64,000 nt of DNA from a virus: IMG/VR virus record IMGVR_UViG_3300047496_000204, positions 10,764 through 74,763 of that record. The stretch is one strand, 5' to 3'. The notes beneath the pieces were generated by a model, which was given only the letters and a program-made list of their open reading frames with translations, searched no databases and was not told the origin of the DNA. Positions 1,639-63,915 of this stretch are shown in pieces. A program made the position numbers and the translations under genes. Every line of letters starts with the position of its first letter. Position 1 is the first letter of the stretch.

Positions 1639-2998
1639 TATCTTGATTTTTCATACGGTTTTCTAACGCTCTCTCCCAATTATAATCTAACGGGCCGCCC
1701 CTAGCTTTAATAAATTTACTCAAAGTTTCTTCATCGGCCTTGTTTATAATTTCTTGTTTTTGTTCATATGTAAAAGGAATACGAATAACATAATTATAAA
1801 ATTGCGAATGATCGTCGAGAAACCCTTTAATATTATAAAAATTCTTCGTTAAATAGTCTAAAATTTTTGGAGTAAAATATTTATTCGTGAAACTTATTAA
1901 ATGAAATATCATCAGATAATTTTCTTTAATTAAATCCAATATTTGGTCTTCATTAAGAGGAATGATATTTAGTAAATTAGGAACCTCGCTAATCCAATAT
2001 TTATATTTCAGGTTAAATGCATGTTTTACATAATCTGGAAGTTTATCCCATTCTAAAAGTCTTAATGCGTATCTAGGTATAGTTTGCATGATAAATTTTA
2101 TTTGAAAGAAATCTAATTTTCCAGCATATAGATATTTTAAAAATAATTTTGGATTTTCAATGCATATTTGACTAATAGTTCTAGGGTTTTCTGGTTTTAT
2201 ATTTCGAATAGTTTCTACAACTTTAAATGCTTTTATGGAAAAGAATACTGCTTGAGTGGGTTCATTATGATGAATAATTCCAGCCCCATTATCCACAGCC
2301 CCTTGATAACCTAATATTCTGAAAATTTTATTCCATGTAGAAACAGCATTCTCATCTATATCAGTATGTAATTTAATAGTATTAGCTAATACTCTAGTGA
2401 TATTCCATATATATCCACCGGGACTTTTTACTATTGCTTCACGTATGGCATAATCAATAGTTGCTCTCGGGTCGTTAAAACGAGTTATTTGTTTTGTCTT
2501 ATTATAATAATCTTGATCTTTGTAAGCTTTGAGCTTAGGTGGTATAAATTGTGGATTTTCTTTTTTGAAATCTTCCATATATTCTACCAAACTTTCTATA
2601 TCTTGATCTAAATGATTGTTGGTATATGAATCCAGCATTAATATATTGTCAGTTGGCACTGCTAGTGAAAGAATGTGAATAAAAGGTTGATTTCCGGCAA
2701 AAGGTACTTTTCCGTGTAATTCTAAAACATAATCTATAGGGTAAGTATAAATTCCTATAGGAGTTTCATAATAAGTAGATTTTGGATTGACACCTATTTT
2801 ATGTCCAGAAACATTTGCTGTTAATAACGAATCGGGTTTCATATGGGATTCTATCCCAACATCTGCTGTAAATGAAACGAATATATCTGATTGTCCTTCA
2901 TATTTCTTCAATTCTTCGAGAAAAGATTTTTTGAAATTTACCTTATGATTGCGACGCAATTCAAATAATTTGTTTTCGAATAAATCTTGCAAAATCAT
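1628..2998 (-). CDS. Hypothetical late protein, possibly virion-internal
   Basis: 456-aa ORF, GATAAATA at 3007-3014, N-terminus MILQDLFE; GIYTYP and LGYQGAVDNGAGIIHHNEPTQAVF motifs of unassigned function. Confidence 0.7.
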   Translation of the reverse strand: MILQDLFENKLFELRRNHKVNFKKSFLEELKKYEGQSDIFVSFTADVGIESHMKPDSLLTANVSGHKIGVNPKSTYYETPIGIYTYPIDYVLELHGKVPFAGNQPFIHILSLAVPTDNILMLDSYTNNHLDQDIESLVEYMEDFKKENPQFIPPKLKAYKDQDYYNKTKQITRFNDPRATIDYAIREAIVKSPGGYIWNITRVLANTIKLHTDIDENAVSTWNKIFRILGYQGAVDNGAGIIHHNEPTQAVFFSIKAFKVVETIRNIKPENPRTISQICIENPKLFLKYLYAGKLDFFQIKFIMQTIPRYALRLLEWDKLPDYVKHAFNLKYKYWISEVPNLLNIIPLNEDQILDLIKENYLMIFHLISFTNKYFTPKILDYLTKNFYNIKGFLDDHSQFYNYVIRIPFTYEQKQEIINKADEETLSKFIKARGGPLDYNWERALENRMKNQDIKM

Positions 2999-28168: not shown

Positions 28169-28197
28169 TTTTTTCCATGTTTAAGTAAGAGATAGGG

Positions 28198-28271
28198 TAG
28201 ACTCGGAAGGACTTGAACCTTCAAAATACCAGCTTGATGCTGGCAGCGTATACCAATTCCGCCACGAGTCT
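28198..28271 (-). tRNA. tRNA-like gene with TCA anticodon (non-canonical A33/G38)
   Basis: AGACTCG/CGAGTCT acceptor, GCCAG-CATCAAG-CTGGT, canonical T arm. Confidence 0.55.
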
Positions 28272-28274
28272 ATA

Positions 28275-30303: not shown

Positions 30304-30396
30304 TTACCCCACGGTTGGCACACGACTCCCCGAAAACCCGAGCCACTTAAGGCGCAGGCTTTTCAAGCGGAGAGATATGCTTAACCGAGAGAACAT
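30304..30396 (-). CDS. Leader peptide 1, MFSRLSISLRLKSLRLKWLGFSGSRVPTVG (putative attenuator)
   Basis: AGGA SD 12 nt upstream, directly after the promoter, followed by the terminator; translated by hand. Confidence 0.7.
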   Translation of the reverse strand: MFSRLSISLRLKSLRLKWLGFSGSRVPTVG

Positions 30397-45515: not shown

Positions 45516-45796
45516 TTTACAATGCAGACAATGATCAGTTTTTAATCCATATTTTTCTTCCGCTGTCAGTAATTTGAACGTAGGATCAAGTTTTCTTTGA
45601 TGGCGATATAAAGATTTTTGGGCTGAATATGATTTTTGCGGTTGACAACAATTACATTTAAATCTAATATCTCCTTATATTCGAAAAGGAGATAATCATG
45701 ATGAATTTGAACGAACTGGTCTTTATGCTGGTGTTTTAGGTGAAATGTCTCCGCTCCAAACTCTTGGTGCGAGACTTCTTTTGGAGGGTTGGTAAA

Positions 45797-46174
45797 ATGA
45801 CAAATTACAATGAAATAGTTGATACCGTTTTGGCGGCTCCAGCGGATGCGCGTGTTTTTGTTCTGAAGGGAATTTTCTCTGATTCTGAACGGAATTTCAA
45901 TCTTCTTTTGCTGGATTGTATGTTAGAACGCCTTCAAGTATGGCCTTATCGAGATTCTGTTACCAGTTTGGTTAGTAATGAAATACATTCTGAACGATTA
46001 AATGAAATCGTTGATTTTCTTTTGGATTCATCTCGGGAAGCCAGATTTTATGCTTTGAAGGGTATTCTGGTTGAGTATTCTACTAACAGTTTTCTTGTTC
46101 TGTTGGCTCATAATTTGATTTCTCGGCTGGCGTTTCAGAAGTTCAACCTGGACAAGAATGTGGAATGTCTGTAG
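45797..46174 (+). CDS. Hypothetical protein with two internal repeats
   Basis: EIVDTVL...ARVFVLKGI and EIVDFLL...ARFYALKGI. Confidence 0.6.
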   Translation: MTNYNEIVDTVLAAPADARVFVLKGIFSDSERNFNLLLLDCMLERLQVWPYRDSVTSLVSNEIHSERLNEIVDFLLDSSREARFYALKGILVEYSTNSFLVLLAHNLISRLAFQKFNLDKNVECL

Positions 46175-57373: not shown

Positions 57374-57623
57374 CAACGCTGTTCAACGTGGATATCTATA
57401 TTGAGCGCAACCGTGAGCGGCGTTGAATGAAACGCAGAGGATATCATATTGTAGAAATTTGTTTGTTAGTCATTGCAAGGACGTCTTACAAAGGAATACG
57501 GGGATGGTATTAAAATCTGAAGGAATTTGTTATTCCTTCAAGGGGATATTCGTTGTTGAGCGAATGTTTCCACAACTCGTGAACGACCTAAAGCATTTCC
57601 CGTAATCAACCGGGCCACGGCGC

Positions 57624-58121
57624 CTATTCCAGTTTCAACGTTATAGAATTGATAAGCGGGATACCATATTTAATGCATCCTGGCAGCGTATGTTCCATAT
57701 TGTCGTCAACCAAAACTTCAAGTCCCATCTCGCTGCATACTTTACCTTTCCAGGTATAGTAATATTCCTCGGCCGCCGTTAGGGGACCAGTTAAACGGCC
57801 TCGTTTACGCAAATATTCGTCTTGATTACATGCTACCCAGGCTTTGTGAGAAATGGTTACCACTCCATCAAAATCGGTCTCATCCAATCCGGCATGGTTT
57901 TGTGCGAGTTCTTGAAAAATACTATTAACCCAACCGTCAGTTCTGAACGTTACAATTACATGTTTTTTGTTGGGAGTATTTTCAATAAAATCGTAAAACA
58001 GTTTGTCATGACGATTATCGATCAGAGTGTTGTCAAAATCCCAAGCAATACTTGAAAAATTATTCAATACCGACAAACGGCTATAAGTTTCAATAAGAGA
58101 TATACTATTTCGGATGGCCAT
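57624..58121 (-). CDS. HAD-superfamily hydrolase, late gene
   Basis: IAWDFDNTL and LVDDN; GATAAATA at 58128-58135. Confidence 0.8.
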   Translation of the reverse strand: MAIRNSISLIETYSRLSVLNNFSSIAWDFDNTLIDNRHDKLFYDFIENTPNKKHVIVTFRTDGWVNSIFQELAQNHAGLDETDFDGVVTISHKAWVACNQDEYLRKRGRLTGPLTAAEEYYYTWKGKVCSEMGLEVLVDDNMEHTLPGCIKYGIPLINSITLKLE

Positions 58122-58571
58122 ATCTACTATTTATCTTAGAAGCAACTTCATCCACCATGACGCATAACCAAAGTATACAAGATCAGAAAATCTTAGCATT
58201 TCTCACGGCTTCAAAATCAACTTCTCCGTAATAGTCTTCCCGAAAATTTCCGTAGAAACCTTCCATGACGAACCAGCCTGTTTTCTTTTCATGATCGTCG
58301 AGCAAGCCTACAAAAGCATCTTCAAGCATACCATTTTCACTTCAAGATTGGCTGATCCACCTTCATAGGCATATTCGTTGATTTCCAAATGAAGCGAGTC
58401 ATATTCTTTGGTTTCTGGATTCCATTAGGTTCAGGTCGCAAACTTTTTTGATAATCTTCGTATTCTTTTTCTTCTGGTGTCTGATCCAGCACTTCAATAT
58501 TCGCCATGATTATCTCCAACGAAAAAGGCTCCGCTGAATAAGCGGAGCCTTGATCATGTTTCCTAGAAATA

Positions 58572-58808
58572 TTAGGAAGCGGTCTTATCAGATCGAGTGG
58601 AATGTTCTACGCGAAGAATGCTCAGGATTTTGTCCTTAGCAGCGTCAAAGCCTTGAGCCAATTCGCCTTCGACCTTACGAATCGCGTTTTCAATATGGGG
58701 AGTAGCCATCTTTGAAGGGGCGATAGGACCCTTTTTACCATTCCACTTGATATCTTCCGAGGTAGTTTCGTTAGCCACTTTGGGCCTCCTGTTTGTTAAT
58801 AACCACAC
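58572..58808 (-). CDS. Small hypothetical protein
   Basis: Real start is probably the GTG after GGAGG. Confidence 0.55.
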   Translation of the reverse strand: MWLLTNRRPKVANETTSEDIKWNGKKGPIAPSKMATPHIENAIRKVEGELAQGFDAAKDKILSILRVEHSTRSDKTAS

Positions 58809-58841
58809 TATCGGCTTTTATGAGCAGTTCGTCAATATTTT

Positions 58842-59216
58842 TTATGATGCCTTCTTACAAATCGGGATGAGTTTGGACATGATAACACTTTCCGGTAAAG
58901 ACGAAATTGGGGTGGTTATATAACCAGCATTTCCTATCAAAACGACCAAATAAAATTTGTGAGATTCATCATAGATGCCATTTCCAAAAACAACATTAGC
59001 TGTAAAGGTATTACCTGTTAATTTTACGACTGGTTGAGGATACCATAATCCATCATTAGAATAAACCAAAGCTTGTAAAGATGTTATATTTGGTTTTACA
59101 TGGCCAGTAATTACATATTCTTGAGGAACTTCATGTAAAGGAAGATTCACATGGATATCTCCATCAAGGCCAATAACTGCTGCCAACATATATTCAAAAT
59201 ACTTTGTAATGTTCAT
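58842..59216 (-). CDS. Hypothetical late protein
   Basis: GATAAATA at 59240-59247, GGAG SD before MNITK. Confidence 0.65.
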   Translation of the reverse strand: MNITKYFEYMLAAVIGLDGDIHVNLPLHEVPQEYVITGHVKPNITSLQALVYSNDGLWYPQPVVKLTGNTFTANVVFGNGIYDESHKFYLVVLIGNAGYITTPISSLPESVIMSKLIPICKKAS

Positions 59217-59254
59217 AAAAATCTCCGAGTTTACTCGGCTATTTATCACAAAAC

Positions 59255-59666
59255 AAAAAGGGGAGCCGGAAGCTCCCCTTTTTGTAGAGATTTTTCGCAT
59301 CTCTCAAGGGTCGATACATGTCCCTCGCGACTAAACAGTGGTAGTTTTATTTCAATCGCGTTTCGCACTGTCACGCTAATAAAACATCTGTTCGCATTAT
59401 GAGTGCTACCTGCTTATCGGTTATAGTTGATCCACATTTATTTTCCAATTTACAAAAGTCCTCTGAGGACAACAAGGCGGTTACATAATAAATTCTCCTG
59501 TATGTTGATTAAACTTACTATTCATTCACTACGCATATTTTCAAACTAAATGCTTAAGTCCGAAGGGTTACATGATGATCTCCTTTTCAGATTTAATTTA
59601 ATATATTGCTATATTGCTATATTGCTCTTCAACTTTCTTATATTAGCAAAAAATAATTTTAGTCAA
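59255..59666 (-). ncRNA. Putative small RNA containing two SD-ATG-TAA start-stop sites
   Basis: TTGACT promoter at 59661-59666, AGCAATAT x3, AGGAG-N7/8-ATGTAACC twice, terminator at 59255-59283. Confidence 0.6.
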
Positions 59667-59673
59667 GCGATTT

Positions 59674-60057
59674 TTACGCTAAAATTTCATCTCCAAATAG
59701 GATGGCTAACGGAATAATTTTTTCATTTGAACATCGAACTGTAAATGTTTGATCAAATAAAGATAAAACCAATATCAACCGTTCATTATTGATGATAATT
59801 TCCAGACATCTACTAGGCCGTCGTAGGGCCGGTAAAAATATTGGTTCGGAGTAAAATGTCTGCCATTTTATTTTACATTTTTCGCCAATTTTTTCAGAAA
59901 AGTTTATCAAGCGAGTCAAAAATAGAGCCCAACAACCAGATTTTTCCAAAGCATTTTTGTGTCTGTTTGGATCAAACCAAGCGGATTCAATATCTTCAAT
60001 ATGGAGAACAATGGGAAGATCACTGTCAAACGCAGCGCAATCTAGAAAATCTATCAT
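59674..60057 (-). CDS. Hypothetical protein
   Basis: ORF only. Confidence 0.55.
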   Translation of the reverse strand: MIDFLDCAAFDSDLPIVLHIEDIESAWFDPNRHKNALEKSGCWALFLTRLINFSEKIGEKCKIKWQTFYSEPIFLPALRRPSRCLEIIINNERLILVLSLFDQTFTVRCSNEKIIPLAILFGDEILA

Positions 60058-60481
60058 TAAAATAAAGCCTTAAGATTAAGACTTCATCCTAATGAGGGAG
60101 ATTCAGCTTTTCAATATTAAAGAAAGCTCTTGAGAGCTTTTAGATCGTCGCCGATTAGATCGACATGGATGGGTCCAATACCCAAGGCGGTAACGCCTTT
60201 AACATTCTTCTTTGCCGGTATAAAGACGATCTGATCTAAGAATTACAGCATCGGGTGGCGCATGATTGATATATTCTTCAATGAGTGTGTCAAGACTTTC
60301 TTGTAAAGTCTTGACTTCAATGTCCATACTTCAATCTCCAACATTTGATCCAAGGATCAGAGAACCATCAAAAAGCTCTAGCACTTCATACACTATTTGT
60401 CTACTAAACATATCATCATTCAAAATCAGCATGATTTACTAACAATTTCTTGCAATCTTCTGTTGAAATTTTAGACATATA

Positions 60482-61018
60482 TCAATCTCCGCAATCTTCG
60501 CCCAACCAAAGTTGGTTGTTTCGATCTTCGAGGACAAAATAACTTACGCCGCCCTCTGTGCCATCCAGATAAAATCTTCGGATAGTAAGAAAACATTCAG
60601 CCGGAAGCATCATCGTGTTATTATCTTCGCAGGTTATTAGGTATTCTTCATCATAATAATCGCTATTTACATTAGTGGCAGAATATTTTCCACCACGTTT
60701 CCACTTTTTTGGATTAATAGACGCCTTTTTTACGGCTATATCTTTTTCCAAATATTTTAATTGCATGCTAGGATCGGAAAAAGAATGATCTAATAATTGT
60801 GGATTTTTAGAGAAATAGTCTGAAAGAAATTCTCTACAATCATTGGTAGTGACTATTGGACTAGCAGGTTGCTTACCAAATGATGGTGGAGCTTCCTCAA
60901 CTTCGCACACTTCACATAGACTATCGTCATTCAAAGTTTTAGACAGAAACAAAAGACTGCAACCCTGGCATTCTTCCGCATCTTCTTCCGGATTAAATTC
61001 TTTCCATAGTATACTCAT
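60482..61018 (-). CDS. Hypothetical protein with a CxxC motif
   Basis: ORF only. Confidence 0.65.
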   Translation of the reverse strand: MSILWKEFNPEEDAEECQGCSLLFLSKTLNDDSLCEVCEVEEAPPSFGKQPASPIVTTNDCREFLSDYFSKNPQLLDHSFSDPSMQLKYLEKDIAVKKASINPKKWKRGGKYSATNVNSDYYDEEYLITCEDNNTMMLPAECFLTIRRFYLDGTEGGVSYFVLEDRNNQLWLGEDCGD

Positions 61019-61269
61019 AATTCCGAAACCTGAACCATTAAATTAGAGATTTCGAGAACTAAACCAACTGCATTATTGACGCCCATTTTAACCATAAAAG
61101 CATCAGCCAAGGTCGGCACCATGACAGAAAAGCCGTTCGAATCTTTAGCTTTCTTGCACGTTGTACCTAATTGTTTGATAACTTTTTCGATTTCTTTATC
61201 GGTATCAGAGCCTTTGAACGTGACGATATAACCCCAATCTTCAGGGTTAGCCTCATTCTTACTAGGCAT
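61015..61269 (-). CDS. Hypothetical protein
   Basis: Coupled ORF. Confidence 0.6.
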   Translation of the reverse strand: MPSKNEANPEDWGYIVTFKGSDTDKEIEKVIKQLGTTCKKAKDSNGFSVMVPTLADAFMVKMGVNNAVGLVLEISNLMVQVSEL

Positions 61270-61298
61270 TCATTTTCTTTGAAAAATGGGACGCAAAA

Positions 61299-61907
61299 TC
61301 AATTGCGCCCCTGATAGTTACGATAGATCATCATAGCTTGCTCGTAAAGGATGGGATCACCATCTGATAGAATTTGTAACAAGGCGCCTTTTTCAGACAT
61401 CCACTTCCTCGCAAAACCGCCAGAATTTTCAATAATTCCAGGAGCGTTACTAATCAGGTCCGCAAGTTTTATTGTATGCACATCGGTAGTTTGTTCCGCC
61501 GTATGTGCCAAATCAATAGCCTTTCGAACCTTTCTGTTGCCTTCCCATGGCATGCTTACATCGGTCAATCCAGACACAAGCCGCCGAACTTCTGGACCAA
61601 ATTCTTGTTCGATCAGATCAAGCGTAATTCCTTCTAGCATTACACCGTTTTCAAATACGCGTGTATCTTCGACAGTATCGTGGAGCAATGCAGCCATTTC
61701 CATCTCAACAGTGACACCAGATGATTCGGGAAGTTCTTGCAGGATCGCACATACATCAATCGGATGAACAATGTATGGAGCGGGCTCTTCACCCGGCTCA
61801 GCATACTTACGCGTCTGCCGCACGGCAGCATGAGCCGCGCTTGCGAAGATGCGGGCGTTGTTCACGCGAGGATTACTCATATCTGCTGTTCTATATGTCA
61901 TATTCAC
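61299..61907 (-). CDS. HD-domain (p)ppGpp hydrolase-like protein (SpoT/Mesh1-type small alarmone hydrolase)
   Basis: AAHAAVRQTRK, PYIVHP, AALLHDTVEDT, FGPEV...LTD and IKLADLISN. Confidence 0.88.
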   Translation of the reverse strand: MNMTYRTADMSNPRVNNARIFASAAHAAVRQTRKYAEPGEEPAPYIVHPIDVCAILQELPESSGVTVEMEMAALLHDTVEDTRVFENGVMLEGITLDLIEQEFGPEVRRLVSGLTDVSMPWEGNRKVRKAIDLAHTAEQTTDVHTIKLADLISNAPGIIENSGGFARKWMSEKGALLQILSDGDPILYEQAMMIYRNYQGRN

Positions 61908-62754: not shown

Positions 62755-63006
62755 ATGGGTTTTTTAGTTTCAGGGCCTGATCCAAAGAGTAAGAGAACAA
62801 AACATTCTCTAACTCAAACAATTATGGCCAATAGACTTTTAGATTTTCTGGAACCAACAGTTACGTATCGTCGCCAGAAACCATTAGTCGCCGCAATTGG
62901 TAAGTATATTTCGATACTCATCTTGTTTGGGCTGGTTGGTCTTATAGTGTTTGAGGTTCTATTATATGTGAATACTCTAAAACCTCCCCAACATATCAAT
63001 GGCTAA
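62755..63006 (+). CDS. Small membrane protein
   Basis: One hydrophobic segment. Confidence 0.5.
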   Translation: MGFLVSGPDPKSKRTKHSLTQTIMANRLLDFLEPTVTYRRQKPLVAAIGKYISILILFGLVGLIVFEVLLYVNTLKPPQHING

Positions 63007-63915
63007 ATCAACGTCTCCAAATATTTTCTTGAATTTTGGATAAAGCCATACATCAGTTTTAGAAGTATTTTTCATTTCCGTATGAAGTTTATTCTTTAAG
63101 CTGTCATTGGAAAATAACAACTGCTCCAATCCTGAAATATTTGAATCATTTTCTAATACAGAAATTTGTTTTTCAGTCTGTATCAAATCGTCCCAAGGAA
63201 TGATAACTAATTTTTTCAAAAAATCAATCAACTCATATGATTCTTTGAATGCCGCTTTTATTTTTGTTTTTGAGAATTGATCATTTCGAGCCAAAGCAAT
63301 TAATTTGGCCACGTTTTTATATCGTTCAATAAATTCTTTACCCATGATCGCCAATTCTCCACGAGTTATAGTAAAATTGCCTTTATATTTTACAAAATCG
63401 CTCATCTTTACAAATAATCCTGACATATCTTCGATGCCTTCCATTACACCGTCTATGCCACCATAGGATAAAAATTTAGAGATCACGTTCAGCCATTTTG
63501 GTATTTCATCCGGATAGTAAATATAATTAAGACCACCGCACCAAACAGGTTTATAATTTTTTGGAGAAGCTGATATATTTTTACAAATGTCACGTAAAAC
63601 AACATATCCTTTAAGATGTTCATCGGCACGAGATATTGGAATTATTGTATTGTCTATAAGAGAAATCATCACATAACCAATTTCGCCCATCTCACCCTTA
63701 ATCGGATAAAAATAACGCGTATTTTCCTTGGCATTTCTTTTTTCACCAGCCAATGCTTGTTTTTTAGAATAGCCTTCGTATTGGATAGCCTTCCAATTTT
63801 TGTAATCACGCAATGAGCCGGTCATTACATAATTTTCTGGGTTAAGCTCTGGATGAAGGATGAATGGTGCCCGCTTAACAGATTCCACGATATTTATAAA
63901 ATGACGCATAGACAT
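62977..63915 (-). CDS. Hypothetical protein, possibly virion-internal
   Basis: N-terminus MSMRHFINIVES; 312 aa. Confidence 0.7.
   Translation of the reverse strand: MSMRHFINIVESVKRAPFILHPELNPENYVMTGSLRDYKNWKAIQYEGYSKKQALAGEKRNAKENTRYFYPIKGEMGEIGYVMISLIDNTIIPISRADEHLKGYVVLRDICKNISASPKNYKPVWCGGLNYIYYPDEIPKWLNVISKFLSYGGIDGVMEGIEDMSGLFVKMSDFVKYKGNFTITRGELAIMGKEFIERYKNVAKLIALARNDQFSKTKIKAAFKESYELIDFLKKLVIIPWDDLIQTEKQISVLENDSNISGLEQLLFSNDSLKNKLHTEMKNTSKTDVWLYPKFKKIFGDVDLAIDMLGRF

Follow-up and report, generated by a model that had tools for sequence, protein, structure and literature searches.

Two Start-Stop Sites without Sense Codons in a Predicted Protein-Less RNA Unit of a Megaphage Fragment

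An intergenic unit of about 380 nucleotides, located on the minus strand of a 64,000-nucleotide stretch of viral DNA (the window, by which we mean this stretch at its full length), most likely encodes no protein and runs from a promoter-like element to a strong terminator, and within it two Shine–Dalgarno (SD) sequences are each followed by an ATG and, immediately, a TAA. Judged by its sequence the unit is real and odd, a single copy without a homolog. We consider it likely that both sites are selected, ribosome-binding start-stops, whatever their use, and tentatively put forward the reading that ribosome occupancy at the two sites acts in cis, where it would shield the RNA and perhaps gate a weak terminator situated after the second site.

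The window is part of a single virus contig of 134,526 bases (37% GC) obtained from a moss metagenome. This contig uses the standard genetic code and carries some 30 tRNAs; an alternative code was ruled out on the grounds that all three stop codons end normal genes. Its RecA/UvsX is about 45–55% identical to that of cultured jumbo phages (CBB, GAP32 and Atu_ph07, for example) and 62–68% identical to that of uncultured phages of 0.4–0.58 Mb, a kinship by which the contig represents part of a megaphage (jumbo phage) genome. A closer relative, an ENA contig of 85 kb, shows 74% identity in RecA. A tmRNA of alphaproteobacterial type in the relative G004 is a hint, not proof, of an alphaproteobacterial host group. 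The region around the unit is rich in small singleton ORFs and lacks conservation across the relatives, and the flanking genes, for which homologs were sought as anchors, proved to be singletons as well.

Anatomy of the Start-Stop Unit

Reading along the minus strand, the unit opens with the −35-like hexamer TTGACT (59661–59666), TTGAC being the −35 of the phage's promoter-like sites, followed by TGcTAATAT (59640–59648), a putative extended −10 element, with transcription predicted to start at about 59634. The hexamer TAATAT recurs in a promoter near 45643. The earlier note had called a sigma70-type promoter here: both hexamers are present, but they lie 15 nt apart versus 16–17 nt at the phage's other promoters, and the element is absent from the list returned by a consensus promoter scanner. 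With such a spacing either the extended −10 would be needed or an 18-nt spacer to TATAAG would have to be used, and we regard the promoter as plausible though imperfect. Since no terminator was found between the upstream gene (59674–60057) and the unit, the latter may also be transcribed as the 3′ tail of the upstream operon.

The 5′ leader contains three tandem AGCAATAT 8-mers (59603–59626), probably the product of slippage duplication; eleven single copies elsewhere in the contig follow no pattern of association with promoters. Start-stop site 1 (59566–59587) comprises the SD AAAAGGAG (59580–59587), a 6-nt spacer and ATGTAACC (59566–59573), which reads ATG-TAA-CC, and start-stop site 2 (59479–59500), 87 nt away, comprises the SD CAGGAG (59495–59500), an 8-nt spacer and the same ATGTAACC (59479–59486). 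As the first ATG lies some 60 nt from the predicted transcription start, a strong ribosome-binding site would thus sit near the 5′ end of the RNA. A weak terminator-like hairpin of 5 bp with a T run (59452–59470, −5.3 kcal/mol) begins 16 nt past the A of the second ATG, just beyond the footprint of a ribosome at that position. Behind it comes a 3′ half (59286–59451) with no credible ORF and no more structure than its shuffles, in which the hexamer TGCGAA occurs three times (59294–59396) outside any matching hairpins. The unit ends at a strong intrinsic terminator with a 15-bp arm pair and T runs on both strands (59253–59285). The two SD-ATG-TAA sites, the three repeats and the terminator on the minus strand, all described in the earlier note, are present in the sequence.

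Directly behind the terminator, and outside the unit, lies the late-promoter-like box GATAAATA (59240–59247) of the next gene (59216–58842). Many ORFs of the contig have this box in front of them, and its place behind a strong terminator makes this gene independent of the start-stop unit. The encoded protein (58842–59247, minus strand, box included) is a 124-aa singleton, the confident Atlas model of which matches uncharacterised clusters with a TM score of about 0.7 and domains of secreted proteins with one of about 0.6.

Non-Randomness and Strength of the Two Sites

Throughout the 134.5-kb contig the pattern AGGAG-N5–10-ATG-stop occurs at sites 1 and 2 only, which make up two of its 36 AGGAG-ATG sites. 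When the 412-nt stretch was shuffled 100,000 times with its dinucleotide content preserved, one site arose in 431 shuffles and two sites in a single one; the pair is not expected by chance, even given about a hundred intergenic stretches of like size. A Logan contig, from a separate assembly but probably of the same source run, covers 57587–60364 with zero letter differences, and the stop codons are therefore not an assembly slip.

Both SDs are strong by the phage's own standards. In predicted anti-SD pairing, site 1 ranks 9–10 and site 2 ranks 11–18 among the starts of 157 long ORFs (top 6–12%), and site 1 is identical at 17 of 18 nt to the promoter-proximal ribosome-binding site at 45683. 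The shuffles, the pairing ranks, this near-identity and the analogous phage sites described below together support non-random start-stops that bind ribosomes. The earlier note had reasoned that two independent identical start-stop contexts are unlikely to arise by decay, and of this argument the non-randomness holds while the independence is not proven: beyond the shared 8-mer, the sequences following the two sites are not significantly alike (p = 0.24), which excludes a recent duplication of one site and leaves an old one neither shown nor excluded.

The contig has 69 long ORFs that end in TAA, and none of them has the TAA-CC context at its stop; the motif is therefore not an ordinary start joined to an ordinary stop. 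The context also bears on a leader that would sense release-factor activity, either because a leaky UAA-C context, or an ochre tRNA of the phage, would admit ribosomes into short Pro-starting frames, or because a −1 shift would give Val-Thr peptides. Such a leader would find a Pro codon after both stops (Pro-Pro at site 2), a C that follows only 10 of the 69 normal TAA stops, a −1 frame opening Val-Thr-Ala at site 2 as well as in G004, and stop-reading tRNAs in related phages. The ochre-reading, TTA-anticodon tRNA, however, is absent both from the contig (a fragment, with TCA) and from four large relatives (with CTA), the unit holds no gene to be regulated, and at other start-stop sites any base follows the stop among the matches listed; we consider sensing by read-through or frameshifting very improbable.

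Coding Potential and RNA Structure

The unit is intergenic, and between 59300 and 59674 neither strand contains an ORF of at least 60 aa. The claim that no long ORF appears in any frame is therefore upheld at this length, with the qualification that short frames do exist: behind site 2, the −1/+2 register is open for 37 codons, with no SD-backed start of its own; a GTG frame of 42 codons extends across the terminator; and an ATG frame covers 8 codons. Frame 0 itself closes again within 8 (site 1) and 19 (site 2) codons after the stop, which rules out a gene with a single nonsense change. For the 37-codon peptide, a search of 1.84 billion proteins and of the relatives gave no homolog among small proteins, the matches being confined to repeats in long proteins, and a frameshifted small gene was rejected.

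These frames also weigh on the unit being a relic, that is, a promoter and two gene starts surviving from small genes that a hypervariable region has lost or inactivated, with site 2 as a dead gene start. The many small singletons and lack of conservation of the surroundings would suit such a history, as would the open 37-codon frame and the placement of site 2 where other start-stop leaders have their real gene start (76–123 nt). Set against it are the early re-closure of frame 0, the lack of homologs of the peptide and the unlikeness of TAA-CC to the phage's usual gene end; moreover, decay would neither produce ATGTAACC at two sites nor leave both SDs, the promoter and the terminator intact. 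We judge a relic quite unlikely.

Whole-unit folding gives a z of −4.2, which drops to −1.4 upon removal of the terminator and is −0.73 for 59290–59440 in the 3′ half. A structured 3′ RNA was accordingly rejected, the low z stemming from the terminator. Rfam covariance models (E-value and gathering thresholds) returned no family match for the unit, and no antisense partner above chance was found within the contig. With neither a structure signal nor a family, any cargo in the 3′ half is hypothetical.

The same data speak to a protein-binding RNA, such as a CsrA/RsmA sponge, in which the AGGA motifs would be SD-like by coincidence. Eight GGA motifs occur in the 380 nt, two of them as AGGAG. Sponges of the CsrB/RsmZ type present many GGA in hairpin loops; here the count is near the five to six expected from base composition, the motifs do not lie in repeated hairpin loops, and no Rfam family matches. 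Binding of this kind would, in addition, leave ATG-TAA at SD spacing unexplained. Alphaproteobacteria, to which the tmRNA of G004 points, mostly lack CsrA. Taken together this makes a protein-binding sponge most improbable.

Start-Stop Sites in Relatives and Other Phages

The unit was then sought elsewhere. Against cultured phages, blastn left it unmatched apart from the terminator, and a DNA search of eleven related records found no sequence homolog. In all, about 2.3 Mb of sequence of the nearest relatives was examined. The regions of G001–G003 that are syntenic by an HD-domain gene hold no start-stop, a promoter-proximal one is absent from three of the four large relatives, and genome-wide counts of SD-ATG-stop in relatives are no higher than those of control triplets. 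Five cultured jumbo phages and 39 further records gave no convincing promoter-proximal start-stop. The earlier note had proposed searching phages for SD-ATGTAA arrays: single promoter-proximal sites do occur in other phages, as set out below, but pattern scans for the exact and tandem motif in viral contigs, metagenomes and genomes returned just chance matches in coding repeats and satellites. A bacterial genome, the Desulfobacteraceae MAG L696 (960–1048), has AGGAGGG-spacer-ATGTAACC duplicated 70 nt apart in an intergenic position, which may be a chance duplication.

The exception among the large relatives is G004, which has one promoter-proximal, intergenic site consisting of CAGGAGG, 5 nt and ATG-TAA-CG, 180 nt before a 60-codon ORF. 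This site is not syntenic with the unit and not alignable to it. In the folding model, a ribosome on it would mask one arm of a competing hairpin and leave free a hairpin followed by a U run. In the surrounding locus (L245, 1–1700) histidine kinase and response regulator genes precede the start-stop, the tmRNA lies 2 kb upstream, and the competing hairpins are followed by the 60-codon ORF, which has a strong SD.

Scanning viral contigs for TTGAC, SD and ATG-TAA gave about ten intergenic cases in 79 distinct matches, and promoter-proximal SD-ATG-stop sites were found in the unrelated phages L326, L311, L317, L413, L433 and L324. These analogous sites mostly lie 76–180 nt ahead of a real gene, a position that implies action in cis. 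A control scan with any third base yielded, among the matches listed, intergenic sites with no alternative start for 7 of 16 ATG, 2 of 12 ATC, 2 of 28 ATA and 9 of 40 ATT, a modest enrichment of ATG over the control triplets. Pairwise alignment of the unit with 14 other start-stop leaders gave no significant match, the best being L324 (p = 0.07).

In the T4-like group, SD-ATG-TAA of L326 aligns with SD-ATG-TAG of L707 (82% identity in the downstream protein), and the start-stop is kept although the spacer has changed and an insertion has occurred at the stop. Three of the five leaders of the L326 family are without the start-stop segment. The retention of TAA/TAG is one event, which would arise by chance about half the time, and is suggestive only. 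All five T4-like relatives (leaders of L326 and L704–L710) share a GGAGG...CTCC hairpin, 30–45 nt before a conserved 88-aa gene located behind an AAA ATPase gene; this hairpin is likely an undescribed regulatory leader.

The closest architecture to the present unit, at a similarity p of 0.07, is that of L324, a 242-kb phage in which a gene-free unit of about 450 nt (~1800–2250, minus strand) comprises a promoter, SD-ATG-TAA, two 87-nt repeats with a 7-codon minigene each and a terminator. This likeness is consistent with a sponge acting in trans, meaning an abundant RNA on which ribosomes, initiation factors, initiator tRNA, release factors and RRF would turn over unproductively, lowering or redirecting early host translation. 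The stand-alone, gene-free layout from promoter to terminator and the presence of two sites rather than one fit as well. Small translated RNAs with a strong SD are familiar from the lambda bar minigenes, which trap tRNA as peptidyl-tRNA. Both bar and the RNA toxin CreT (PMC8501985) exert their effect through translation off a strong SD; they need at least one sense codon to trap tRNA, however, and both sites here have zero, so no peptidyl-tRNA would form, no elongator tRNA would be sequestered, and of the possible effects occupancy remains. A sponge would further consist of just two sites on one short, single-copy RNA, the analogous sites mostly precede genes, and a lytic phage, we reason, depends on the same ribosomes. 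We regard a sponge in trans as rather unlikely.

Ribosome Occupancy in Cis

From the observed anatomy, the non-randomness, the SD strength and the in silico folding geometry we infer transcription, ribosome binding, protection and gating along the following lines. Transcription would begin at the stretch's own early-type promoter and stop at the strong terminator, giving a protein-less RNA of about 380 nt; the same sequence may also be made as the last part of the upstream operon's transcript. At each site a 30S subunit would bind the SD and a 70S ribosome would assemble on AUG, placing UAA in its A site. Such a ribosome is a substrate for either release factor, upon which formyl-methionine is released and the ribosome is recycled; the site could then reload. 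The two footprints, 87 nt apart, would cover the AU-rich 5′ half and may shield it from nucleases or from premature termination. The ribosome at site 2 may in addition control the folding of the weak hairpin, which begins 16 nt downstream, and with it the synthesis of the 3′ half. When the site-2 footprint is forced to be unpaired, this hairpin (59452–59470) is the sole remaining structure, and the free local fold pairs otherwise.

In the trp and thr leader-peptide attenuators a ribosome at the leader stop covers one hairpin arm and thereby frees a terminator. The weak hairpin at site 2 and the footprint in G004 would, by the folding model, have the same geometry, with small energies; here, in contrast, there are no sense codons, the hairpin is weak and no gene comes after. 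Without sense codons, what such a leader could sense would be limited to initiation, termination or recycling.

Precedents for action in cis exist at each level. Toeprinting and reporter assays show that SD-bearing start-stops of E. coli bind ribosomes, and these sites act in cis (bioRxiv 10.1101/520783), leader minigenes likewise act in cis, with ribosome binding to the mini-ORF guarding the RNA against RNase E (PMC8708949), and a strong SD alone stabilises transcripts, phage SP82 mRNA included (PMC7509114). Arguing against occupancy in cis are the lack of a sequence homolog of the unit, the non-syntenic position of the G004 site, a 3′ half with neither structure nor family, the weakness of the gating hairpin and the atypical promoter spacing. 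Among the three functions offered by the earlier note, protection in cis fits best, stripped of its "downstream ncRNA", for which neither a structure signal (z −0.7) nor an Rfam match was found; the sponge and a decoy for A-site toxins would be compatible with the sequence.

The decoy would exploit the fact that RelE cuts UAA and UAG in the A site and that YoeB cuts UAA and 3 nt downstream of AUG (PMC7781912), AUG-UAA being ideal for both. An antitoxin-like or defence gene is not identifiable nearby, however, and the sequence gives no sign of cleavage resistance. These toxins being catalytic, a cleavable decoy would itself be consumed, and we hold a decoy for improbable.

Relation to Known Systems and Implications

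The nearest described counterparts of the two sites are the Start-Stop sites of E. coli (Meydan et al., bioRxiv 10.1101/520783; yecJ, hslR), which likewise consist of an SD-like sequence, AUG and an immediate stop, give no product and owe their activity to ribosome binding. Each of the 14 E. coli sites, however, stands alone and out of frame within a host ORF, which it tunes by about 16%, whereas the phage unit has two strong-SD sites in a gene-free setting with its own predicted promoter and a terminator. Held against the features of Start-Stop sites, the unit has the immediate in-frame stop and usable SDs (6- and 8-nt spacers) and is not nested in a gene. Leader minigenes (axe-txe mg2, EHEC LEE1 and the LEE4 mini-ORFs; PMC8708949) and SD stabilisers (SP82, ermC, ompA; PMC7509114) resemble it in loading ribosomes at the 5′ end without a useful peptide, the downstream RNA being protected or tuned. 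They have 2–6 codons or no start and are followed by a protein gene, in contrast to the zero sense codons after AUG and the absence of a gene in the unit. No stand-alone phage RNA with tandem start-stops was found in the literature searched, most subscription papers lying outside the reach of that search.

Start-stops in bacteria have so far been described just as single sites within genes and with subtle effect. If the present reading is true, a gene-free phage transcript built on two of them, together with single ones heading other phage transcripts, would point to purposeful empty cycles of initiation and termination. A bolder proposal, which we deem unlikely, is that zero-codon start-stop modules serve phages as a general tool, the two described here forming a dedicated RNA that only cycles ribosomes, thereby sensing initiation and release capacity via the hairpin, or titrating the machinery or A-site toxins in trans. 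The unit would also be a simple natural construct in which the effects of ribosome occupancy on an RNA and on the cell are isolated from those of peptides and tRNAs, and it raises the question whether phages turn start-stops against translation-targeting defences. Gene callers miss start-stop sites wholly.

Further Observations on the Contig and Its Relatives

The element at 45643–45800 (plus strand) combines a TTGACA-17-TAATAT promoter with a ribosome-binding site near-identical to site 1, ahead of a hydrophobic ORF of 13 codons, which is followed by a short ORF running into the next gene start; it is possibly a leader or encodes a micro-membrane protein. At 28195–28272 (minus strand) lies a 78-nt tRNA with anticodon TCA, called SeC by ARAGORN yet short for a selenocysteine tRNA, and a candidate opal suppressor; relatives G001, G002 and G004 have CTA-anticodon tRNAs instead. 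One Logan contig (depth 5.4) links both ends of 60520–61357 with 35 other letters in between, matching over just 18 and 27 nt, and a variant or relative lacking this stretch is possible but unproven. Two adjacent ORFs of exactly 312 codons each on the same (minus) strand, at 62977–63915 of the window and 75022–75960 of G000, are possible paralogs. GGQ-motif, release-factor-like proteins of the ArfB/PrfH type are encoded in G001 (near 265806) and G002 (near 30351) and not on the contig itself. Finally, a strong-SD minigene of 8 codons, starting MTPLNA, is conserved in the tRNA regions of G002 (518176) and G003 (8900, plus strand).
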